Below, piece after piece: positions 2,791 through 62,558 of a DNA stretch of 64,000 bases. Under the pieces are notes generated by a model. The model saw nothing but the letters and a program-made list of their open reading frames with translations, was not told where the DNA came from and ran no database searches. The DNA lies in IMG/VR virus record IMGVR_UViG_3300008116_000018, one strand, 5' to 3'. The stretch comes from a virus. How positions within the stretch are numbered: the stretch's first letter is position 1; each line of letters begins with the position of its first letter. Position numbers and translations under genes: made by a program.

Positions 2791-4250
2791 TATTCTTCCT
2801 TTAAATTTAACGTGTAAATTTTATATTCAAACTTTTCATCGTTATAAATTTTCATTCGTTCGATAAAATGTTCTAATGTAAAATTCTTTCTACTCTTATA
2901 AGTCATGTCATCCGATATGTCATACAGAATAGCTTCTTTCTTGTTATCTCCCAAACGCAATCCTCGACCAATAGACTGTAGTGTTCTAATTTTACTCTTG
3001 CTTGGTGAAGCAAAAATAACATTATGTAGATTACGAATGTTGATACCAGTAGAGAATGTTCCATATGATGCTACGATAATTGCATTCTCTTCATCTTCAG
3101 TAATTCTACGAACTTCTTCTCTTTCATCTACGCCAACCGCACCATGAATAAAGAATACAGGTCTATTTTCTTCTACTGCGTCCTTAAGCATATTATACAA
3201 TATTCTGCCGTGCTTGTCAACGAACTGATATAGTAGAAGAGTGTTACCTTCTAAACTCATAGTCAAATTTCTAATGAATCTATTACGTGACGGCTTACCT
3301 ATAATATAATTTATCTCATCTTGATATTTAAAATTCTTACCTAGCTTACATGATTCTTCGTTATGCTTAAGCACCAATGCTTTAATTCTAAACTTAGCTA
3401 ATCGTCCAGAGTCAATCAATTCTTTTGTTGTTGTTATCTGTTTGACTTTACCGAACAAACCTTCTAAGACTAATCTATGTGTCTGTGTTCCATCTAGTGT
3501 ACCTGTGAGTCCAAATCTATACTTGCACTTTGTTAGTTTTGTTAGAATTGATATCAACGACTTTGCTTTAAACAAATGCGCTTCATCTCCAACAACTAAT
3601 TCAAATTCTTCGAACCATTCTTTTGGCATCTTGTAAATTGACTGCCATGTAGATATGACAATGGGGCAATCAGTTTGTTTGCTTGCACCTGACATAATCT
3701 GGTGTATGTATTTATCACTCTCAAACCCATAGTCTTCAAAGTCTTTGTATAACTGTGCGACAAGTGAGATAGTGGGAACAATGATAAGAGTCTTGCAATT
3801 TAAATATCTCGCAATGAGATATATGATAAGCGACTTGCCTGATGCTGTGGGTGATACTAATAAGTTTCTTCTACTGCGTACTGCATGAATGAATGCTTGA
3901 ATCTGATAGTCTCTAACTTCAAATGGTATACCTAGAGTATCGATGAAGTCTGTTGCTTCTGCTACAGAGAATTCATCATAAGTTTCTACTGATTCGTCAA
4001 ATTCAATTACGTAGTCACGTTCTTTAGCAAACTTTTCTAAGTATGGAATCAAACCATAATAGATTTGTCTGTTCTGAGAATTGAATAGGCGTATTTTTCC
4101 ATCCCACACTTTGTTTCTAAATGCGGGCATGAATTTATAACCGGGAACGTAGAACGTAAAGTATTCATTCAACTCCATTGCATCGGAGTTCTCACACTTG
4201 ATGTGTGCGTAGACTTCATCTACTTTTGAAATATAGAGTTTATTGTACAC
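2790..4250 (-). CDS. uvsW: SF2 DNA helicase UvsW
   Basis: WDGKIRLF, SPTASGKS, DEAH, TGT, QSIGRGLR. Confidence 0.96.
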   Translation of the reverse strand: MYNKLYISKVDEVYAHIKCENSDAMELNEYFTFYVPGYKFMPAFRNKVWDGKIRLFNSQNRQIYYGLIPYLEKFAKERDYVIEFDESVETYDEFSVAEATDFIDTLGIPFEVRDYQIQAFIHAVRSRRNLLVSPTASGKSLIIYLIARYLNCKTLIIVPTISLVAQLYKDFEDYGFESDKYIHQIMSGASKQTDCPIVISTWQSIYKMPKEWFEEFELVVGDEAHLFKAKSLISILTKLTKCKYRFGLTGTLDGTQTHRLVLEGLFGKVKQITTTKELIDSGRLAKFRIKALVLKHNEESCKLGKNFKYQDEINYIIGKPSRNRFIRNLTMSLEGNTLLLYQFVDKHGRILYNMLKDAVEENRPVFFIHGAVGVDEREEVRRITEDEENAIIVASYGTFSTGINIRNLHNVIFASPSKSKIRTLQSIGRGLRLGDNKKEAILYDISDDMTYKSRKNFTLEHFIERMKIYNDEKFEYKIYTLNLKEE

Positions 4251-21772: not shown

Positions 21773-21964
21773 ATGGAGAAACTTATGGACAATTTAGTAA
21801 TTAGCGTAGAACTGAGTGTGACTGATGTGAACATGCTCCTAACTTTAATGGGAAAAACCTTGACAGAGACAGGATATTACCCTATAATGATAAAGATGAA
21901 GCAACAGGCACAGGCGCAAGTTGATGGCTTCAATCAAAAAGTGAAAGAAAATGAGTCGATATAA
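21773..21964 (+). CDS. Small hypothetical protein
   Basis: 63 aa ORF; GGAG precedes an internal ATG at 21786; overlaps the gmhB start. Confidence 0.6.
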   Translation: MEKLMDNLVISVELSVTDVNMLLTLMGKTLTETGYYPIMIKMKQQAQAQVDGFNQKVKENESI

Positions 21965-22550
21965 TTTAAAAAATTTGATTACAACAGTTCAAATCAAACA
22001 CAATCTACCCGTTGTTGGATTAGATCGTGATGGCACAATTATCAAAGACATTGGTGATTACATAACAGACCCAAATCAAGTTGTTCCCATACCGGGAAGC
22101 CTTGAGGCAATCAAGATTTTGAGAGACAAAGGACATAGACTTGTAATTCTTACAAATCAAGGCGGTATTGCAAAGGGTCTACAAACCATCCAACAGGTAG
22201 ACGATGTACACAGTCACCTGATGAATATTTTCGGACAGAATGGCATTTCATCAATCGATGGACTCTACTATTCAACATCGTCAATGAAAGAAGATATCTA
22301 CGCAAAACCAAATGTTGGAATGTTTAATCGTGCCAAAGACGAATTAAAAGTTGATTGGAAAAAAGGTTGGTATGTTGGAGATAAAATCAGTGACTTAAAA
22401 GCCGCAGATAAAATTGGATCAAAACCAATTCTTGTGTTGACAGGGCATGGTAAAGAGACACAAGAAAAATTGAACACTTACGCTAACCGAGAACTAAAGA
22501 AAAAAACTCTAGTATTTAATAATCTACTAGAGTTTGTTAACACGCTTTAA
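21951..22550 (+). CDS. gmhB: GmhB-like heptose-1,7-bisphosphate phosphatase (HAD IIIA)
   Basis: LDRDGTI, TNQGGI, KP..GM, VGDKISDL, VLTG.G. Confidence 0.82.
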   Translation: MSRYNLKNLITTVQIKHNLPVVGLDRDGTIIKDIGDYITDPNQVVPIPGSLEAIKILRDKGHRLVILTNQGGIAKGLQTIQQVDDVHSHLMNIFGQNGISSIDGLYYSTSSMKEDIYAKPNVGMFNRAKDELKVDWKKGWYVGDKISDLKAADKIGSKPILVLTGHGKETQEKLNTYANRELKKKTLVFNNLLEFVNTL

Positions 22551-23098
22551 TACTCGTAAATATTCAACATTAGATGAGTTCGCCAATTAGAACTTCTGTT
22601 ATCAACACCATGCAATCTTGTATTGTCGAATTCATAGACTTTTCCGCATTCCCAATGATATTCAACATTTTCAATTATATATTTGCATTCGGGATACGTT
22701 ACAATTGGAATATGAATTCTATGACACGATGAAAGAAAATTTCCCGAGTCAGTATGTATACCCACTTTTGAATTTGGCGCTAATCTTGCAAAAAAACACA
22801 AATACTCTTTAACTCTAATATCTGTATTTTCTGTTATGTGTGTTAGCGTACGGTCTATTAAAGATTTATATTTTTCATACAAACTATAATTTGCAACATG
22901 GGATCTCCAAGTTGAGTCTGTCACTTTAGAATAATCATCAAAGTATCTTAGTAAAATAGATTGTGTTTTTTCTAAATTTCCCATTGTGTTGCGAATATCA
23001 TCGATATACCAATCACTTTCGGTGATTGTGTTCTTAATATCTTCGATTAAATTTAAATCAAAATCACACAATACTTTATACGGAACATTTAATTTCAT
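22547..23098 (-). CDS. Asp/Asn beta-hydroxylase-like 2OG-Fe(II) oxygenase
   Basis: L.P...V.IHTD, RIHIPI.T, G.VYEFDN...H.V.N....R.HL. Confidence 0.85.
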   Translation of the reverse strand: MKLNVPYKVLCDFDLNLIEDIKNTITESDWYIDDIRNTMGNLEKTQSILLRYFDDYSKVTDSTWRSHVANYSLYEKYKSLIDRTLTHITENTDIRVKEYLCFFARLAPNSKVGIHTDSGNFLSSCHRIHIPIVTYPECKYIIENVEYHWECGKVYEFDNTRLHGVDNRSSNWRTHLMLNIYEY

Positions 23099-23100
23099 AG

Positions 23101-23610
23101 TTATTCTTTCTTTATCTGAAACCCAAACGATATGTTAATTCTTGATCTTTCACCAACAACTGGTGTAGATGCATGATTATATAGGCCTGCCTCACATCGC
23201 CATAGCATTCTTTCTTCTATGTCAAAAATTTTATTGTCGTAGATTGGCTTACCACCAGACTCAGGAACACTTAATAGTAAATTATATCTAGTGTGAACAT
23301 ATCCATCATTATTTGGATCTTTATGTGGATGTATTGCACCATCAACAGTATTAAAACTCAAAAAATCACCGAATGTAGGATCCAATAAGAAATCTGTTAA
23401 ATTTTCGGTGTCAATGATTCTTTGTTTAACAATTTTATATTCTTTTGGCACAGAAAACTTAGTAGCAATATGATCTACATAAAATCTGCCAGCGCCATTA
23501 TTTCGTAGGTGTGCTTGTTGTTTATTGGAGAACTCTAAAAGAACATTTTGTTCTTCTAGAGTTATGAAGTCTTTATACGCCCAAGAATTGGGAATATCAA
23601 TCTTCGTCAT
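23101..23610 (-). CDS. 2OG-Fe(II) oxygenase
   Basis: IHPHKD, PESGG, H.STPV.G..SR..ISFG (HxD...H...RxS). Confidence 0.8.
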   Translation of the reverse strand: MTKIDIPNSWAYKDFITLEEQNVLLEFSNKQQAHLRNNGAGRFYVDHIATKFSVPKEYKIVKQRIIDTENLTDFLLDPTFGDFLSFNTVDGAIHPHKDPNNDGYVHTRYNLLLSVPESGGKPIYDNKIFDIEERMLWRCEAGLYNHASTPVVGERSRINISFGFQIKKE

Positions 23611-24010
23611 GTGACGTTGCCTTATCCAAATCTTCTAGTTTCTTTTTAATCCAATAATCATCGTCTTCACCACTATATGGATCGTTATTTCCAGAATAAA
23701 TGTCTGTCACATCACCATCAACATCTCGTAAAGCAAACACACAATAATATTGAACATCATCAGTCAATGCTGTTATCGTGTGTATATAATCTTTTCGAAT
23801 AATCATAAATGTCGGACCTTGAAATTCTTTAGATCGTTCTTCGTTTGTAATACTATTTTTGACATCTACTCTGACTTTACCTTTAGCAAGCATTGTCACG
23901 TGGTCAAACCGATGCACGTGGCCTCTGGCTACATCATTTGTTTTTTTCAAATTGTGTTGACGTACCCAAATATTTCCAAAATATCCTAGTTCTTTAATTT
24001 CTGATGGCAT
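23597..24010 (-). CDS. Cupin-fold protein
   Basis: GHVHRFDHVT.LAKG.V.V ... H.I.AL.DD. Confidence 0.75.
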   Translation of the reverse strand: MPSEIKELGYFGNIWVRQHNLKKTNDVARGHVHRFDHVTMLAKGKVRVDVKNSITNEERSKEFQGPTFMIIRKDYIHTITALTDDVQYYCVFALRDVDGDVTDIYSGNNDPYSGEDDDYWIKKKLEDLDKATSHDED

Positions 24011-24013
24011 TTT

Positions 24014-25759
24014 TCATCCTTCGATAATCTTTTTTAAAATAATATTTTTAGATGGAACATACAAATACTGTAATTCACTATTCTTTAGTGTCTTAATAGC
24101 ATCATCAAATGTTTCAACTAAAGGCTCTCCTGCAAGATTGAAACTTGTATTGAATAGAATTGGAACACCAGTCAACTTCTTAAACGCATCAATCAAGTCA
24201 TAATAGTATTTATTTTGATCTCTAGTTACTGTTTGAATTCGACATGTATTGTCAACGTGTGTAATAGATGTTACTTGACCGATACGTTCTGGCAATACAT
24301 CTACAGCATACATCATAAATGAAGATTCGTTCATGCCTGCCATGTCAAACCACTCATGCACATGTTCTTTTAGAATTGATCCTGCAAAAGGACGGAACCA
24401 CTCACGACCTTTGACTTTGTTAACAATATCTTTGCCATTTGCTGTTCGTGGATCAAATAGAATTGATCGATTACCTAACGCTCTTGGACCAGCTTCAGCG
24501 GCACCATTGAATATGGATACGATATTTTGATCTACAATTAATTGTGCAACATCATCAGCAGTGACTGTTTCAATTGTGAATTCATCAGAATATTTCTGTT
24601 CATCAATTTCATCGTTTCTATCTATACCCAAGTACAATGTCGTTAGGGGTTGTTTTTCAATATTGATATTTTCTGCGACACAATGTTGATACCACAAGAA
24701 TTTTGCCAAGCCAATTGATGTTCCGCCGTCATTTGCAACTGGGTCAACATACAAATTGATATCAGGAAAACGTTTTCTGTAATAATAGTTTGCTACACAA
24801 TTTAGTCCATATCCGCCAGAGATAACAATGTTTTTTTCTCCAGTCAGATCAATAGATTTTTGAATCAAGTCACCAACAAGTCTTTGTGAGTCTTGTTGAA
24901 TTTTCCATGCAATGTCTTGAACTAATTTTAAATCTTCAGGATGTTTTGCAATCTCTTTGATATCTGCACCTGATGGATTTACAGCATCGCCCATAGCTTT
25001 CAATCTGAGTTCAGGAAATGCGTTTATGTTCAATGATCCGCCAGCAGGATACTGTGGCTGAAATAAATTTCGATTTGCATCTTCACCATAAAATAACGTA
25101 GGAATAATGTCATTCTCTTCACCGTATGAAGAAAGTCCCATTAATTTTCCTGCTTCGATTGGATGAAATCCTGCGTATGCTGTGATAGACTCATAGGCTT
25201 TTGTAATATTCACATTACCATTGAATTTAATCTTCTTATCGTCTGTGTATAATTTAGGTCCATCATTAGCGCCCAGAGACTTGTAGACTAATTCTAACTC
25301 GTTTGGATATGAACATTTATAAATTGATTCTGTTTCGAAACCACCGCTCTGAAAATCAGATTGCAACCTTAAATCGATGAAAGAACCTGCGCCGTCTACA
25401 ATAATTGCAGATGCTGTTTCAAAACCTGAATTATAGAATGCTCCGGCGGCGTGACCAGCATGATGATGATCCCAGTATGAAAATATTTTAACTTTAGGAT
25501 TAAATCGTCTAACTGTTCCAGTAAATACGTCCTCTAACCCCCAAGTCATTTTAGGGTACATTCCTTCGCCTGTGCCGGCTAAAGCTAATGCATCAACATG
25601 ATATTTACTTAAAACATAAAAAAGACTTTTCAGCGGATTAGCATCATACTTAACTCTTGTAAATCTTTCTTCTTCAATATACAGTTCAATTTTACCGTCA
25701 ACAAGAAGACATATGGATCCGTTATGTCCAGGACTAATTGCTAAAACATTGTAACTCAT
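24014..25759 (-). CDS. Carbamoyltransferase, NodU/CmcH/TobZ family
   Basis: GHN.S, EEERF.R.K, HHHAGHA, DGAG, GKLMGL, SGG..LNCVAN, DGGTSIG, E.GPRALGNRS, RPFA, HVD.TCRIQTV, NTSFN. Confidence 0.95.
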   Translation of the reverse strand: MSYNVLAISPGHNGSICLLVDGKIELYIEEERFTRVKYDANPLKSLFYVLSKYHVDALALAGTGEGMYPKMTWGLEDVFTGTVRRFNPKVKIFSYWDHHHAGHAAGAFYNSGFETASAIIVDGAGSFIDLRLQSDFQSGGFETESIYKCSYPNELELVYKSLGANDGPKLYTDDKKIKFNGNVNITKAYESITAYAGFHPIEAGKLMGLSSYGEENDIIPTLFYGEDANRNLFQPQYPAGGSLNINAFPELRLKAMGDAVNPSGADIKEIAKHPEDLKLVQDIAWKIQQDSQRLVGDLIQKSIDLTGEKNIVISGGYGLNCVANYYYRKRFPDINLYVDPVANDGGTSIGLAKFLWYQHCVAENINIEKQPLTTLYLGIDRNDEIDEQKYSDEFTIETVTADDVAQLIVDQNIVSIFNGAAEAGPRALGNRSILFDPRTANGKDIVNKVKGREWFRPFAGSILKEHVHEWFDMAGMNESSFMMYAVDVLPERIGQVTSITHVDNTCRIQTVTRDQNKYYYDLIDAFKKLTGVPILFNTSFNLAGEPLVETFDDAIKTLKNSELQYLYVPSKNIILKKIIEG

Positions 25760-26712
25760 TATTTTTTCACCTTTTCGTTAATATCTTTTTCAATAGATTC
25801 AATCAATTTATCAATTTCTTCGTCAGTCAAATCCATACGTGTGTCATTGAGTCTATCTGCAAGATGACAGTCAATCATATTAATTCTCAATGGCGAATAT
25901 CGTTTTGTTCCAGGCTTTTCGAATATGTTAAAAAACTCTGGATACGAAACGTTTTCTGCAAACGTTGATCCTAAAATAACTGTTCCTGGTTTATTTAAGC
26001 CTCTAGCAAAATGTTGTCCTACACTATCACATCCGATAAAGTAATCAGACGCATTAATTAGTGATATCCAAAATCTTAAATCACCTTCAAATTTATGTGT
26101 GTAGTTGTCTTCTTCTGGACATAGACTTTTATCTCCAAAATAATGAAGATTGTATTTTTTCGATAACGTTTTTACAATCATTAGATAAGACTCGTTTGTG
26201 AGACTTCTAGAAGATTCGTCTATGGTGTAGTTTCCTACTTTTCTGGCTGTGCTTCCCCACGGCTGAATGACAACATTCAACTTTTCATGATTTTCTGGGT
26301 TTTGTTGGCACGCTTGACCAAGTGCGGTGAGTGCATTGAGTTCTTCGCCTTTATTTAAAACAAATTTTAAATCAGGTAAGTCATCGTGATTATTTGTAGC
26401 ATTAATGATTTCATCAAATGCTTGAGATAGATTTTTTTTCTGAGTGTAGTAAGACGGAAGTCTATATGGTTCTGGCGAAATAACTCTAGTCGCATTCAGA
26501 AAAATATTGTCGAATATGCCTTTGTTGTCGATATTAAAAACTTTGTCTTGAAGTTCTGAAATACCCCAAAGCAAAGAATCCCAGCCATAAACACAAATTT
26601 TAAAATCTTCTTGAGGATTTTGTAATTGGTATTTTAAAAGGGCTGGGATTGCTGATACTGCTCGACCTGCTCCACCATCAATAACGAAAACTGTTCTTTC
26701 ACCACTTGTCAT
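25759..26712 (-). CDS. GT-B glycosyltransferase, GT9/heptosyltransferase-like
   Basis: IDGG.GR..SAIPAL N-terminus, IQP.G, LI..SDYFIGCDSVGQH.A. Confidence 0.7.
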   Translation of the reverse strand: MTSGERTVFVIDGGAGRAVSAIPALLKYQLQNPQEDFKICVYGWDSLLWGISELQDKVFNIDNKGIFDNIFLNATRVISPEPYRLPSYYTQKKNLSQAFDEIINATNNHDDLPDLKFVLNKGEELNALTALGQACQQNPENHEKLNVVIQPWGSTARKVGNYTIDESSRSLTNESYLMIVKTLSKKYNLHYFGDKSLCPEEDNYTHKFEGDLRFWISLINASDYFIGCDSVGQHFARGLNKPGTVILGSTFAENVSYPEFFNIFEKPGTKRYSPLRINMIDCHLADRLNDTRMDLTDEEIDKLIESIEKDINEKVKK

Positions 26713-26755
26713 GTTAACTCCAAAAATAAAAAATTATAATATATGTATATCTGCA

Positions 26756-26784
26756 ATTATACAGAAATTCACTCTCAATGTCAA
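26756..26784 (-). promoter_or_regulatory. Perfect sigma70 promoter driving the enzyme cassette
   Basis: TTGACA-17-TATAAT. Confidence 0.85.
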
Positions 26785-26791
26785 TAGATGA

Positions 26792-27187
26792 TTATATTAT
26801 TCTTCTAAAAAGAGTTGCGCCACATCCACTCATTGACCCTAAAGCTAGATAGCATGTGCTAGGAGAACCGATACAAAATCCTGGCTTAACACATGTTGCA
26901 TTAACACACGCTGTCACTGGTCCGTAATTTTGGCATTGAAAGCAACACATATAACAACAAATGCCCCATGGAATCAAACAGTTTCCCTGATAACAACATC
27001 CAAGTAGAGTTGATGAACATTGTGCATTTAATGCAAAAACTAGTTGTCCTACACCAGTTGTACCAGCAGGATTTGCACTATACTGGGCTGTGTAACCAGA
27101 TATTTCTGACAATGAATATCTAGGTTTAGCACCACCACGCTTAATAACACCAATTGATATCAGTTCACGCCAAGATTCGTCTTTCAT
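26792..27187 (-). CDS. Cys-rich fibre-tip-like protein, paralogue B (14 Cys/131 aa)
   Basis: KPRYSLSEISG, GVGQLVFALN, GATLFRRI; duplicate of the next gene. Confidence 0.75.
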   Translation of the reverse strand: MKDESWRELISIGVIKRGGAKPRYSLSEISGYTAQYSANPAGTTGVGQLVFALNAQCSSTLLGCCYQGNCLIPWGICCYMCCFQCQNYGPVTACVNATCVKPGFCIGSPSTCYLALGSMSGCGATLFRRII

Positions 27188-27510
27188 ATTATGTTATTCT
27201 TCTAAAAAGAGTTGCGCCGCAGCCGCCAGTCGATCCTAAAGCTAGATAGCATGTGCTAGAAGAACCTATGCCAAATCCCGATTTAACACATGTTGCATTA
27301 GTGCATGCCGAAGACTGATTTGGCGCAAAGCAACAACAAATTCCCCATGGAATTAAACAGTTTCCCTGATAACAACATCCAAGTAGAGTTGATGAACATT
27401 GTACATTTAATGCAAAAACTAGTTGTCCTACACCATCTGATGCCGCTGGACTCGCTCGATACGATTCTTTGACGCCAGATATTTCTGACAATGAATATCT
27501 AGGTTTATTA
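26792..27510. repeat. Tandem gene duplication (~330 bp units)
   Basis: Long identical blocks, e.g. aaacagtttccctgataacaacatccaagtagagttgatgaacattgt in both copies. Confidence 0.9.
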
Positions 27511-27515
27511 GCCAT
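27189..27515 (-). CDS. Cys-rich fibre-tip-like protein, paralogue A (11 Cys/108 aa)
   Basis: Same blocks as paralogue B. Confidence 0.75.
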   Translation of the reverse strand: MANKPRYSLSEISGVKESYRASPAASDGVGQLVFALNVQCSSTLLGCCYQGNCLIPWGICCCFAPNQSSACTNATCVKSGFGIGSSSTCYLALGSTGGCGATLFRRIT

Positions 27516-27520
27516 TTTTT

Positions 27521-28636
27521 TTAATACTCAACAACAAAATATCCATTACCGCCCGGCGCACATGTGAAGGACGAACCTGAGCAACCGCATGGACAAATAA
27601 AACAAAAGTTTTGGTTGCTGTAACTGCACGTGCATCGTGCAACGTACTGTGGGTTTTGACCACCGCCACCACCACCACCACATCCTGCGATGCCAAAACA
27701 TCTTGTTGCGACTTCACAGTTACAACTAACAGAATTTGCTCCACCAAATACGCTTGCAATGTATGTTGGACATGGATATCCAGCGGCAGTGCCTGCAATA
27801 GATGTGTCTAGTCTAGACGTAGAGACAATAAATTCTCCTGGCCAACGGGGTTTAACGAGAGGAACACTCACATCATTAATGGCAACAGCTTCACCATTAA
27901 ATGCTTTACATGCAAATAAATCGGAACCTGTGGTACCAGGAAATTCGCTTTGTGTAGTGGTGCCTAAATAACTGCCAGCCGCCCCGCCTTTTCCACCCAT
28001 GACAACAAAGTAACATGTGTTACAATTGTTATTGCATGTTAAAGTGTGACAGAAACAGGTCGCCATTGCTTGAGGGCAACCACAAAGCCCACAGCCACCA
28101 CAGCTACCTGTGGCTGTAATTAAACATGTTACGTTGGCTGCGGTATTTGCTGTACCTGTTCCGCCACACCCGCCACATCCTCTGCCTACGCCGCTGGTGC
28201 GATAGTCGCATGGTTGATTGTAGTTACCGCAACAGAAACCTTCAAAGGTAACTCCGGCACATCCGCCAGCCGCTATAATTTGAGTTCCCATACATGTTGT
28301 GCCACCAGGATAAGCGCCAACCGTAATAGTACATGCTGTTCCTGGAGTAACATCTACTTCAGCGAGAACATAACCACCACCACCGCCGCCGTGACCACCC
28401 ATGCTAGGATGACAAGGGCAACTCATAGAAGGTGAACAAGCGCATGAAGGAGCGCCGCCAGCGCCGAGGGCTGAAACTCTAACTTTGGTAACACCAGTAG
28501 GAACAGTGAACGTTCCAGATACACCAAAAAATTCAAACTGACCGCTTCCGAATGCTGTGTAAGTTGTACATGGTTTTTTTCCAAAAACTAGTGGACTTGC
28601 GACCAATTCTTTTGGTAATGATACATATCTTGCCAT
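27521..28636 (-). CDS. Gly/Cys-rich fibre adhesin-like protein (36 Cys/371 aa)
   Basis: Glycine-rich domain frame SGTFTVP.GVT.VRV...GAGG...GGGGGG...VTPG...ITVG...GGNG..VVEY. Confidence 0.75.
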   Translation of the reverse strand: MARYVSLPKELVASPLVFGKKPCTTYTAFGSGQFEFFGVSGTFTVPTGVTKVRVSALGAGGAPSCACSPSMSCPCHPSMGGHGGGGGGYVLAEVDVTPGTACTITVGAYPGGTTCMGTQIIAAGGCAGVTFEGFCCGNYNQPCDYRTSGVGRGCGGCGGTGTANTAANVTCLITATGSCGGCGLCGCPQAMATCFCHTLTCNNNCNTCYFVVMGGKGGAAGSYLGTTTQSEFPGTTGSDLFACKAFNGEAVAINDVSVPLVKPRWPGEFIVSTSRLDTSIAGTAAGYPCPTYIASVFGGANSVSCNCEVATRCFGIAGCGGGGGGGQNPQYVARCTCSYSNQNFCFICPCGCSGSSFTCAPGGNGYFVVEY

Positions 28637-28640
28637 TTTT

Positions 28641-29066
28641 TTATACCTCGAATTCTATGTTAGGGCGTGTTTCTAAAATTTCCGTAAAAGGAATAATATA
28701 AGACAAAACACACGAATTGTTGTTATTCAATTTTTCAATTTCAGTAGGAACAATAGAAAATATTTCATCGGCCCAAGTTCTAATTTGATCTTTTCTTTCG
28801 ACAGCTAAACCATTATAATGACTAGATGTTAAATATGATGTATACCACGTCACAATTTCATTTAGTTTTTCGATGTGTCCGTTTCTTATAGAATTAAACT
28901 CTTCAACTGTCATACTTGGAGACAGAAAAAGTTGTAATTCGTCATTAAATTTATATCCAACTAAAACATCATAGTCTGCTGGACTCGGCACACAATTAGG
29001 ACTATCTATTGAGCCAACAATAATATTTTCTATAATATTATTGTTTAAAATAAGTGATTTTAACAT
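28641..29066 (-). CDS. Possible fibre assembly chaperone
   Basis: IIENIIV...VGYKF....F.SP pattern; next to fibre genes. Confidence 0.45.
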   Translation of the reverse strand: MLKSLILNNNIIENIIVGSIDSPNCVPSPADYDVLVGYKFNDELQLFLSPSMTVEEFNSIRNGHIEKLNEIVTWYTSYLTSSHYNGLAVERKDQIRTWADEIFSIVPTEIEKLNNNNSCVLSYIIPFTEILETRPNIEFEV

Positions 29067-29088
29067 TTTTTTATTTTCCTTTCACTTT

Positions 29089-29409
29089 TTATGAAGCCGA
29101 TTCTTCAATTCCAAATACAACAACGCTTGTATTAGAATTGGTTGATAATGCACGAATCGTATTTCCAGCTTCAAGTACAATAGCACTTCTTTCTAGCACA
29201 CCAGATGGTGGAATATTTGCATTAAATTCGATGTAACTATTGGCTGTCATAGACCCAAGAGTAGTTAACGCCATGTTAATTCGAGCATCGCCAGAAGCGG
29301 CTTGGTTACACACTGAAATTGTTAAACTTGCAATTAAACCTGCTGGAACAGTATACACTAACGTATCGGTGTTTTGGGTGAGTATAGTTCGACTTAATAT
29401 TCCTGACAT
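29089..29409 (-). CDS. Small beta-sandwich fibre-associated virion protein
   Basis: VYTVPAG, ISVCN, YIEF, VLERSAIVLEAG, V.FGIEE; late promoter at 29438-29445. Confidence 0.6.
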   Translation of the reverse strand: MSGILSRTILTQNTDTLVYTVPAGLIASLTISVCNQAASGDARINMALTTLGSMTANSYIEFNANIPPSGVLERSAIVLEAGNTIRALSTNSNTSVVVFGIEESAS

Positions 29410-29437: not shown

Positions 29438-29445
29438 TATTTATA
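29438..29445 (-). promoter_or_regulatory. Late promoter TATAAATA for the Cys-rich fibre genes
   Basis: Exact consensus. Confidence 0.75.
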
Positions 29446-59108: not shown

Positions 59109-59615
59109 CTATGGTAAACGATAAAAGATATGTCCTTCGATCTGTGCAACCTTATGCACTTTGTTAATCCAGTCTGGTTTAACGCTTGTTGCATGAAAGT
59201 GTGTTGCACCCTCTAAGAGTTTAATTATATCACTACTGATTGTCTTTGTCAATAGCATTTTAGCCACTTCGTATGATTCTTTCCATCGATTGTTGCTTGG
59301 TGGCGGAGTGTTTGCACTTTTGCTATTGTACCAAGAAAATTGATATGGATCAGTTACTACGTCACGAATGTTTTTTGGATATCTTTTATCATTCAGTCTA
59401 TTCATAGTTACGATGCCGACTGCAATCTTTCCAATGAGTGGTTGATTGCCAGCTTCGTGATAGATGTTCATTGCCATCCAGTAAAGGTCTGATCTACTAG
59501 AATTTTTTGGTGCTGATGATGATTCTGATATTTCTTTCAGTGTTGGCAATGTTGCCGATGCATGTGTAGAACATAAAGTTAATATAAATATTACAGCCGT
59601 TAATAGTGCTTTCAT
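59109..59615 (-). CDS. Cell wall hydrolase, SleB/Hydrolase_2 family, with signal peptide
   Basis: A.NIYHEA, AV..V.MNR, VV....QFSW, GATHFHA..V.P.W, I..HIFY. Confidence 0.92.
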   Translation of the reverse strand: MKALLTAVIFILTLCSTHASATLPTLKEISESSSAPKNSSRSDLYWMAMNIYHEAGNQPLIGKIAVGIVTMNRLNDKRYPKNIRDVVTDPYQFSWYNSKSANTPPPSNNRWKESYEVAKMLLTKTISSDIIKLLEGATHFHATSVKPDWINKVHKVAQIEGHIFYRLP

Positions 59616-61599: not shown

Positions 61600-62558
61600 T
61601 TGCCTAAAACTTTCTGAAATGTCGTTATGTTAGAATACTCATCACTATCGAAATTATAACTCAATGGATCCATATTGTCAAGTATTTCAGCCAATGAATC
61701 TAGAGGGGTAAACTGTGCAGTGAAACCCAACTCATCTTCAATTTTTTCTGTGGTGACCTTGTAGTTACGAACATCATTGTTTTCATTGATAACTAAGTCA
61801 ACAACATATCCTCTGTTTCTCAACTCTCCATAGATTGCTTCACCCAATTGACCAATAGTCATATTGCCACCAGAGAGATTATAAACACCAGACACATTCA
61901 AGTCTGCTTCTAATGCTTTTTGATATCCTTGAATCACATCACGAATATCTATCAATGGGCGCCAAATCTTTGGATTGTTAACTACAATCTTTTGTGTCGT
62001 GAATGCACTCTTCAACATAGTGTTCACAACTAAGTCATAACGCATCTTTGGTGACCATCCACCAACTGTACCTTTACGGAATATAATTGGTTTAAAGTTA
62101 TCATCTTCTAATGTCTCTAAGCCACGTTCACATTGTAATTTAGAAATACCATATGCATATGCTGGCTTAACTAAACTGCTTTCGTTCAATGTCTTGTTCT
62201 TTGTGAAGCCATATACGCTACATGAACTTGCACACACAAAACGTTTCACTCCAGCTTCTTTAGCAATGAATGCAAGATACATTGGTGCAGAAGAATTCTC
62301 AATGAAGTTTAAGTCTGGTCTGAACATCGCCATTGGATCATTAGACAATCCAGCAAGAAACATAACTGCATCATATGAAGTCAACTCTGCTGGCTTGATA
62401 TCCCAAAGGCTTTTCTTTTCTTTTGAAATGCTTGGGTTCAGTTTATCACCAAACCAAAAGTTGTCAATCACATGTACTTTATATCCCAAATCAAACAAGT
62501 GATTAGAGAGTCGTGTGCCAATGTAGCCTGCACCACCAACAATAAGAATATTTTTCAT
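61596..62558 (-). CDS. NAD-dependent epimerase/dehydratase (extended SDR)
   Basis: GGAGYIG, LA.LSNDP, ASSCSVYG, Y..SK, R.DL.VN. Confidence 0.9.
   Translation of the reverse strand: MKNILIVGGAGYIGTRLSNHLFDLGYKVHVIDNFWFGDKLNPSISKEKKSLWDIKPAELTSYDAVMFLAGLSNDPMAMFRPDLNFIENSSAPMYLAFIAKEAGVKRFVCASSCSVYGFTKNKTLNESSLVKPAYAYGISKLQCERGLETLEDDNFKPIIFRKGTVGGWSPKMRYDLVVNTMLKSAFTTQKIVVNNPKIWRPLIDIRDVIQGYQKALEADLNVSGVYNLSGGNMTIGQLGEAIYGELRNRGYVVDLVINENNDVRNYKVTTEKIEDELGFTAQFTPLDSLAEILDNMDPLSYNFDSDEYSNITTFQKVLGK

Follow-up and report, generated by a model that had tools for sequence, protein, structure and literature searches.

Organization of the locus

The sequence analysed here is a window of 64,000 nt (the whole stretch of DNA under study) from the IMG/VR record IMGVR_UViG_3300008116_000018, which belongs to a T4-like myovirus. 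It carries a two-part module in which fibre-tip genes whose products contain about 10% cysteine (Cys) are followed by the genes of a heptosyltransferase-like glycosyltransferase (GT), a carbamoyltransferase (CBT) and further enzymes. The tight link of such fibre tips with a heptose–carbamoyl enzyme set is apparently new to the literature, as our searches found no paper connecting these enzymes with Cys-rich fibre proteins. All genes of the module except the GmhB-like one lie on the minus strand:

29089–29409, minus strand: 106-aa protein resembling a fibre, opening the late fibre-tip operon (PHROG 11338 'tail fiber protein', E 3.6e-9; homologues similarly placed in P-SSM2 and S-CAM3)
28641–29066, minus strand: 141-aa protein of unassigned family, always preceding the Cys-rich gene (gene order recurs in relatives)
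27521–28636, minus strand: 371-aa Cys-loaded protein, probably a fibre tip of the Gly_rich_2 type, 36 Cys (ESM Atlas, profile search)
27189–27515, minus strand: 108-aa protein with 11 Cys, in tandem with its 131-aa paralogue (Cys count, alignment)
26792–27187, minus strand: 131-aa protein with 14 Cys, closing the late fibre-tip operon (Cys count, alignment)
26756–26784, minus strand: perfect promoter of the sigma-70 type, TTGACA-17-TATAAT, within the 79 nt that separate the 131-aa and GT genes (motif scan)
25759–26712, minus strand: 317-aa GT9-fold heptosyltransferase-like enzyme with the non-canonical N-terminal loop GGAGR (AlphaFold2 and Foldseek)
24014–25759, minus strand: 581-aa CBT of the NodU/CmcH/WapO type, overlapping the GT stop by 1 nt (Pfam; PHROG 1601, E 1e-154)
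23597–24010, minus strand: 137-aa probable metal cupin, accessory and clade-specific (invariant His, subthreshold matches)
23101–23610, minus strand: 169-aa 2-oxoglutarate (2OG)-Fe(II)-oxygenase-like protein, accessory (motif, ESM Atlas, PHROG 13746)
22547–23098, minus strand: 183-aa oxygenase of the Asp/Asn beta-hydroxylase family, accessory (Pfam PF05118, E 4.9e-15)
21951–22550, plus strand: 199-aa GmhB-like HAD-IIIA phosphatase, convergent with the enzyme operon (NCBIfam)

In the direction of transcription the module is preceded by genes for a DUF4815 protein of 2043 aa, a protein of 83 aa and a fibre of 408 aa that has no Cys. The 106-aa and 141-aa genes and the three Cys-rich genes (371, 108 and 131 aa) follow, then the 79-nt gap and the five enzyme genes, and the neck (gp13/14-like), gp15 and terminase genes lie downstream at 17–21 kb. 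The tight five-enzyme operon directly behind the Cys-rich genes, which had been noticed in the original prediction made from the sequence alone, is borne out by overlaps or gaps of only −14 to +3 nt. The list of enzymes given there is confirmed or made probable for these five genes and missed the GmhB-like gene as well as the promoter that the enzymes possess. The order of a ~106-aa gene, a ~140-aa gene and a Cys-rich gene is found again in four related loci (L003–L006 in our numbering) and in metagenome contigs; the 141-aa protein, which shares 28–37% identity with its closest relatives, is possibly an adaptor or an assembly factor. No GmhA or HldE gene is present within the 64-kb window. The terminase of the phage has at most ~50% identity to that of any cultured phage, and a megablast search of the region against phage records gave no match.

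Co-occurrence of the enzymes with Cys-rich proteins

The GT family comprises more than 1,462 protein clusters in metagenomes and was located at 452 IMG/VR loci, 80 of which were fetched for the counts given here; these loci are not phylogenetically independent. Any open reading frame (ORF) of at least 200 aa with at least 7% Cys was counted as Cys-rich. A CBT gene stands immediately downstream of the GT in 79 of the 80 loci, the 5 kb upstream of the GT contain a Cys-rich ORF in 65/67, and a GmhB-like gene follows downstream in 61/63. All the Cys-rich ORFs are located no more than 6 kb from the GT (96/96), while the 320 kb of sequence farther away contain none. At the level of whole genomes, the four GT-positive ones (G001, S-CAM3, P-SSM2 and S-SSM7) all encode large Cys-rich proteins, and at this locus only. 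Such proteins occur in none of the seven GT-negative cyanophage genomes, a set that includes S-SM2, with its heptose genes, and two phages with CBT paralogues, P-RSM4 and S-SSM5. The correlation between fibre Cys content and the GT/CBT pair, proposed earlier as a test, is therefore strong both across the IMG/VR loci and among whole genomes.

The same arrangement is present in the cultured cyanophages P-SSM2, S-CAM3 and S-SSM7, whose GTs are only 34–38% identical to that of the window. Three independent representatives of Cys-rich clusters, reached by profile search, also adjoin a GT-sized ORF and a CBT; at one of these three loci the enzyme cassette is inverted and contains HldE, an HldD-like epimerase, an HAD phosphatase and a cupin. 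Three Cys-poor relatives stand among tail genes only, on short contigs. The module occurs in a subset of cyanomyoviruses and in a large uncultured group of marine T4-like phages, and the same host strains have yielded phages with and without it (P-SSM5 and P-SSM4, respectively, from NATL2A; P-SSM2 and P-SSM7 from NATL1A). One carrier genome that is rated complete, G001 (IMG/VR 3300032246_001180, 168 kb, loci L084–L092), lacks psbA, so the large uncultured T4-like group is probably not one of cyanophages.

In comparison with the closest relatives, the enzymes of the window phage are 75–93% identical, whereas the fibre and Cys-rich genes are 28–58% identical. The Cys-rich partners of the enzymes, which range from 231 to 1,397 aa, form at least 26 BLAST clusters, and 84 of the 89 distinct ones are not recognised by the profiles of two Gly-rich groups. 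Because these unrelated-looking clusters all have about 10% Cys, against 0.5% in other proteins, it is composition and not sequence that travels with the enzymes.

Cys-rich, probable fibre-tip proteins

The Cys loading of three consecutive fibre-like genes next to a Cys-free fibre, on which the original prediction was built, was reproduced exactly: the counts are 36/371 (9.7%), 11/108 (10.2%) and 14/131 (10.7%) versus 0/408 in the neighbouring fibre. The window has 71 non-overlapping ORFs with a median of 0.7% Cys, and the three proteins are its top outliers. The 371-aa protein is placed by the ESM Atlas in Gly_rich_2 clusters (score 0.95); its match to the domain model PF21722 (Gly_rich_2) has an E-value of 0.078, below the cut-off, and four close homologues carry this domain. 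Elsewhere in phages the Gly_rich_2 domain is reported from the C-terminal end of tail fibres. A profile search with the 371-aa family over 1.84 billion representatives returned 424 relatives, of which 148 were examined. As most of these (116/148) contain less than 2% Cys and only ~18 contain 7% or more, the Cys-loaded forms appear to be a derived subgroup; the Cys-poor relatives whose contigs were looked up carry PF21722.

Among 18 homologues of the 371-aa protein the Gly-rich scaffold is strongly conserved, whereas the Cys-rich segments are hypervariable. Each protein has 26–39 Cys, but only three columns (3 of 36) are invariant, and Cys is found in some sequence at 106 of the 405 alignment columns. 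Alignment with 118 Cys-poor homologues allows us to judge the earlier suggestion that Cys stands where Ser, Thr or Tyr is usual: of the two invariant Cys of the scaffold, C115 fits it, with a column that is 61% Ser, and C102 does so only in part, with a column that is mostly Tyr, Ile or Leu. The number of Cys residues is even in 54 of the Cys-rich proteins and odd in 40, and this lack of an even-parity bias, together with the turnover of Cys positions, argues against a fixed disulfide framework. The CC and CxC motifs are 1.3–1.4 times over-represented.

The Cys-rich paralogues of the cyanophages P-SSM2, S-CAM3 and S-SSM7 have the N-terminal Gly-rich core in common with the 371-aa protein of the window (hhalign probability 95.9%). 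This homology was revealed by hhalign, whereas a search of P-SSM2 and S-CAM3 with profile A1 gave nothing. A tblastn search of phages with the 371-aa protein also gave no match, for which the low-complexity filter was probably responsible; the P-SSM2 paralogue did work as a query.

The 108-aa and 131-aa genes are 76% identical, with long identical blocks broken by two variable blocks and a 17-residue N-terminal extension, and their N-terminal RYSLSE resembles RYVSLP of the 371-aa protein. We considered an identity of the small Cys-rich proteins as ribosomally synthesised and post-translationally modified peptides or glycocins and rejected it, because the partners reach 1,397 aa and sit in fibre operons. 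At several loci of related phages there are giant proteins of 700–1,400 aa with 10–12% Cys along the whole length and few charged residues (L052:6468-9920, L062:129-4292, L013:6312-9878 and L017:7170-9308). Some of them have a fibre-like N-terminal motif, and the Gly-rich profiles do not recognise them.

The GT9-fold transferase

The AlphaFold2 model of the 317-aa GT (predicted local distance difference test score, pLDDT, 86.8) has a GT-B fold with two Rossmann domains. The first eleven Foldseek matches are all GT9 enzymes (WaaC, WaaF, 3tov and TibC; E 2e-10 to 4e-8), TibC being matched at E 3e-8 with a TM score of 0.57. At the level of sequence the similarity is remote: the window GT has no match to Pfam PF01075 at E ≤ 0.1, 12 of 20 relatives match at E ≤ 1 (best 2.5e-6), and a profile search against PDB sequences found nothing. 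The donor motif DSxGQH, in which D229, S230, G232 and Q233 are invariant and H234 is nearly so, is lined up by hhalign with VDTGLSH of WaaC, the ADP-heptose-binding motif D-[ST]-G-x-x-H. The GT9-like identity that had been assigned to this gene is thus upheld by both the fold matches and the retained donor motif.

The N-terminal loop is different. GGAGR of the phage enzyme stands opposite SMGD of WaaC, with G16-R17 against G12-D13, in an alignment made by eye and anchored on strand 1 and the PAL helix. The Arg at the position of the catalytic Asp is invariant and is also present in P-SSM2, S-CAM3, S-SSM7 and Vibrio phage K479. The canonical catalytic Asp thus appears, provisionally, to be replaced by Arg, which would mean that the GT is not an ordinary heptosyltransferase of lipopolysaccharide (LPS). 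The K479 enzyme (L083; 8887-9738) is a distant homologue with 28% identity and a GGLGR loop. In 31 Vibrio phage genomes a GT homologue of this type is flanked by tail proteins of 1,952 aa and 1,643 aa.

Carbamoyltransferase, heptose genes and accessory enzymes

The identification of the second enzyme as a carbamoyltransferase is secured by both of its Pfam domains, Carbam_trans_N (82.4 bits, cut-off 24) and Carbam_trans_C (197.4 bits, cut-off 27). It falls below the NodU equivalog model (133 vs 1000 bits) and is therefore a member of the family, not a NodU orthologue. The 199-aa phosphatase has its best NCBIfam match in GmhB, the heptose 1,7-bisphosphate 7-phosphatase, at 131 bits (equivalog cut-off 178), and passes the HAD-IIIA (92 vs 45) and histidinol-phosphatase domain models; the context with HldE and HldD in relatives suggests a GmhB function. 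Heptose, the sugar proposed originally, is backed by adjacent supply genes, namely the GmhB-like one in the phage itself and HldE, HldD and GmhA in relatives.

The accessory enzymes are of unequal standing. The 183-aa protein is an oxygenase as had been proposed, with 56.1 bits to PF05118 (Asp/Asn beta-hydroxylase; cut-off 22.6); it also has a weak match to LpxO, the lipid A hydroxylase that belongs to the same family. The 169-aa protein, the second of the proposed oxygenases, is 2OG-like by its invariant H96, D98, H146 and R157 (HxD...H...R motif) and by its placement in the 2OG-FeII_Oxy_3 and Asp_Arg_Hydrox clusters of the ESM Atlas (0.95–0.96). The invariant H31, H33, H37 and H77 (HxH...H motif) of the 137-aa protein point to a probable metal cupin, with subthreshold matches to small cupins (E 0.07–1.5). 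When profiles built on the cupin and on the 169-aa protein were run against PDB sequences, only subthreshold matches or none came up. The cupin is present in 7 of the 80 loci, and like both oxygenases it is confined to the closest relatives; these three genes, listed earlier as members of the system, lie outside its conserved core, which consists of the GT, the CBT and the ADP-heptose genes.

Among the heptose genes of P-SSM2, S-CAM3 and S-SSM7 there is a cupin named 'cysteine dioxygenase' (T4-GC 307; L002:12343-12699, L001:12219-12575 and L164:18033-18434). No relationship between this protein and the cupin of the window was detectable. By its motifs we take T4-GC 307 to resemble the sugar-nucleotide cupins, and its name may mislead. 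In S-SSM7 (L164, 93335-112270) the GT/CBT pair is separated from the heptose genes by denV and by genes for a second carbamoyltransferase, a 2OG oxygenase and a tryptophan halogenase.

Promoters and transcription

The late-promoter motif TATAAATA is found at 29438-29445, 28 nt before the 106-aa gene, and the five genes from this one to the 131-aa gene are spaced by 1–22 nt; on these grounds the five form a late fibre operon. The window also contains five perfect TTGACA-N17-TATAAT sites (0.09 expected), located at 3192-3220 (minus), 21860-21888 (plus), 26756-26784 (minus), 59224-59252 (minus) and 61653-61681 (minus). They probably mark early transcription units, two of them inside the late structural region: the site at 26756-26784 precedes the GT, and that at 21860-21888 faces the GmhB-like gene. 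A promoter with at least 10 of the 12 consensus positions is present upstream of the GT in 46 of the 80 related loci, against ~5% of control windows. The enzymes, having sigma-70-type promoters and no late motif, thus form their own, probably early, transcription units within the late region, and the view that they are plain members of the late structural operon has to be abandoned. Read-through from the fibre operon into the enzyme genes is possible.

Relation to known systems

The statement that no described pathway has this combination of enzymes does not stand, since the LPS core of Pseudomonas pairs a heptosyltransferase with the carbamoyltransferase WapO, which places a carbamoyl group on heptose II and whose gene belongs to the same core cluster as the heptosyltransferase genes (PMC8005017). 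Like the phage module, the Pseudomonas inner-core cluster (WaaC, WaaF, WapO/PA5005) brings together a GT9 heptosyltransferase, a NodU-family carbamoyltransferase and the supply of ADP-heptose (PMC8005017). The module differs in being phage-encoded and in having a GT that is only remotely GT9, with an apparent Arg for the catalytic Asp of WaaC. Moreover, the Pseudomonas cluster acts on lipid A carrying 3-deoxy-D-manno-oct-2-ulosonic acid (Kdo), whereas the module is linked to Cys-rich fibre proteins.

The bacterial autotransporter heptosyltransferases (BAHTs) TibC and AAH, which act on the adhesins TibA and AIDA-I, resemble the phage GT in fold, the one feature compared; they use ADP-heptose in the cytoplasm to decorate an adhesin encoded next door, much as is proposed here for the phage GT. 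These dodecameric enzymes with an iron finger modify Ser in regular beta-helix repeats. Unlike in the module, no carbamoyltransferase is known to accompany them, nor are their substrates known to be rich in Cys. The T-even gp38 adhesins, such as that of phage S16, combine conserved glycine-rich motifs with hypervariable loops and are thus similar to our fibre tips in having a conserved Gly-rich scaffold with hypervariable receptor-binding segments. They belong, however, to a different family (Gly_rich_2 here), their loops are not known to be Cys-rich and no sugar enzymes are known to be associated with them. In chloroviruses and mimivirus, viral glycosyltransferases and sugar-nucleotide pathways decorate the surface proteins of the virus itself, and capsid and tail glycosylation is known from mycobacteriophages (Freeman et al. 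2023 is among the references of PMC12801897). Such systems are like the one proposed here in that viral enzymes decorate the virus's own surface, but the GT families and sugars are other ones, and we know of none with heptose, carbamoylation or Cys-rich acceptors.

The genes of the module are the same as those of the 'LPS gene clusters' of P-SSM2 and S-SSM7 and of the host-recognition cluster of cyano- and pelagimyophages, where T4-GC 302-308 are the GT, CBT, heptose genes, cupin and epimerase (PMC1079782, PMC3037559, PMC7029224). The cyanophage genes were read as a means of host LPS alteration or as possible stuffer DNA (PMC1079782, PMC3037559), and the pelagimyophage ones as O-chain modification (PMC7029224). 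In these accounts we found no mention of the Cys-rich neighbours or of their strict co-occurrence with the enzymes.

Possible acceptors of the modification

Most likely, either the fibres or else the host surface that they bind are modified with sugar. As the pairing of a GT9 enzyme with a carbamoyltransferase has its precedent in Pseudomonas, the likely product is an O-carbamoyl-heptose on some acceptor, and we tentatively favour the Cys-rich fibre-tip proteins as that acceptor, an assignment that we regard as quite possible. Under this model the module would consist of a late, fast-evolving fibre-tip cassette and a conserved sugar cassette on its own sigma-70-type promoters. The GmhB-like phosphatase, together with HldE, HldD and GmhA in relatives, would supply ADP-heptose, the GT9-fold enzyme would transfer the heptose, and the WapO/NodU-type enzyme would then O-carbamoylate it, with O7, the position used in the Pseudomonas core, as the simplest choice. 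The fibre tips would be modified in the cytoplasm before assembly, in the way that TibC and AAH heptosylate adhesins, and in the clade of the window phage the hydroxylases and the cupin would add further tailoring.

Several considerations lead us to prefer the fibres. The enzymes are linked to the composition of proteins that the phage itself encodes, the linkage survives rearrangement and deep divergence, and phages with and without the module come from the same host strains. The GT apparently lacks the canonical base of the LPS type, its family includes the adhesin-heptosylating TibC and AAH, and its K479-type homologue sits between two giant tail proteins. In addition, cyanobacterial LPS contains neither heptose nor Kdo (PMC4515613), and the canonical acceptor is therefore missing in the hosts of P-SSM2 and S-SSM7. 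On the other side of the balance, we infer the acceptor from circumstantial links, each of the enzymes has a counterpart in LPS core synthesis (WaaC/F, WapO, LpxO, GmhB/HldE/HldD), and the enzymes have an early-type promoter of their own, as would be expected for host-directed or metabolic genes, with no late-promoter motif upstream of the GT in 75 of the 80 loci. Conservation of the GT is as high in its acceptor-side domain as on the donor side, although the putative substrates are hypervariable. The Cys-rich proteins have no excess of Ser or Thr, so that ordinary O-glycosylation would not explain the Cys, and the AlphaFold2 model of the 371-aa protein (pLDDT 33.8) is unusable for judging Cys pairing or exposure. 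The co-occurrence counts are inflated by phylogenetic non-independence, and no Cys-rich protein is encoded next to the GT homologues that lack a CBT (Vibrio phage K479 and locus L065).

The same enzymes could instead be directed at the host. An early cassette that places carbamoyl-heptose on an envelope glycan of the class used as a receptor by the Cys-rich tips would block superinfection and keep progeny from being lost on debris, the fibre and the enzymes being a co-adapted pair. Such pairs exist in T5 pb5 and Llp and in the seroconverting gtr/oac genes beside tailspike genes. The perfect sigma-70-type promoters before the GT and GmhB genes, which are conserved in relatives, the LPS-core homologues of all the enzymes and the contrast between conserved enzymes and variable fibres all fit this explanation, and so does the absence of psbA from a complete module-carrying genome, which makes it probable that some hosts are heterotrophs with heptose in their LPS. 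It is also how the clusters of P-SSM2 and of pelagimyophages have been interpreted in print (PMC1079782, PMC7029224), and a GT9 enzyme with a carbamoyltransferase does make carbamoyl-heptose in the Pseudomonas core (PMC8005017). We nevertheless consider receptor masking, the main rival, somewhat less likely than modification of the fibres: it leaves the Cys-richness of the partner unexplained across at least 26 sequence clusters, it has to accommodate both the apparent replacement of the catalytic Asp and a cyanobacterial LPS without heptose and Kdo (PMC4515613), and the linkage persists through inversion of the cassette. The two groups of genes may, on the other hand, have no biochemical connection and merely share a hypervariable 'host recognition' hot spot and travel as a single block, with the Cys serving disulfide or metal cross-linking of fibres in oxidising sea water and the enzymes forming an unrelated auxiliary cassette. 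Synteny among T4-like phages is strong, this hot spot is known to gather auxiliary genes (PMC7029224, PMC3037559), and an excess of CC and CxC is what cross-linked or metal-binding proteins have. Such hitch-hiking seems improbable to us, for the association spans cyanophages and uncultured lineages with GTs of 34–38% identity and survives rearrangement, the Cys-rich proteins are absent from seven related genomes with the same hot spot, and neither the parity of the Cys nor the turnover of their positions is as expected of a fixed disulfide framework. Least of all do we expect the phage DNA to be the acceptor, although a modified base could in principle be decorated by a GT-B enzyme and a carbamoyltransferase much as the T4 glucosyltransferases decorate theirs, and an early-type promoter would suit this role. 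The fold matches are GT9 enzymes and not DNA glucosyltransferases, no hydroxymethylase is seen in the module, and nothing would connect DNA modification with Cys-rich fibre genes.

Within the model of fibre modification, the Cys themselves could be the modified sites, with the Arg-for-Asp variant of GT9 acting as an S-heptosyltransferase or the CBT S-carbamoylating the thiols. The CBT is presumably HypF-related, and we take the action of HypF on HypE to be a precedent for S-carbamoylation. We consider such a role improbable; none of the readings explains the Cys unless the thiols take part.

Implications

For two decades these genes have been labelled 'LPS genes' of phages, their use being uncertain; through their strict link with a class of fibre-tip proteins of bizarre composition they become a testable system, and cultured isolates carrying the module are available (P-SSM2, P-SSM5, S-SSM7, S-CAM1 and S-CAM3). 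Glycosylation of the fibres, if it takes place, would be to our knowledge the first case of a phage virion decorated with heptose or carbamoyl groups and would bear on host range and on the stability and stickiness of the particles in sea water. Should the thiols be modified, the fibre tips would bear carbamoyl-heptose thio-linked at dozens of positions; this type of protein modification would be new, and it would be found on a virus, in some of the most abundant phages of the ocean. If it is the host surface that is modified, the module would serve to mask receptors and be coupled to a single class of receptor-binding proteins. The maintenance of ~10% Cys without conservation of sequence needs explaining whether fibre or host is the target.

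A pairing of a fibre with an oxygenase was also seen outside this module, at L170:292-3654, where a 703-aa protein that lacks Cys and combines an Mtd_N domain with a Gly-rich region is encoded two genes before a 2OG-Fe(II) oxygenase.

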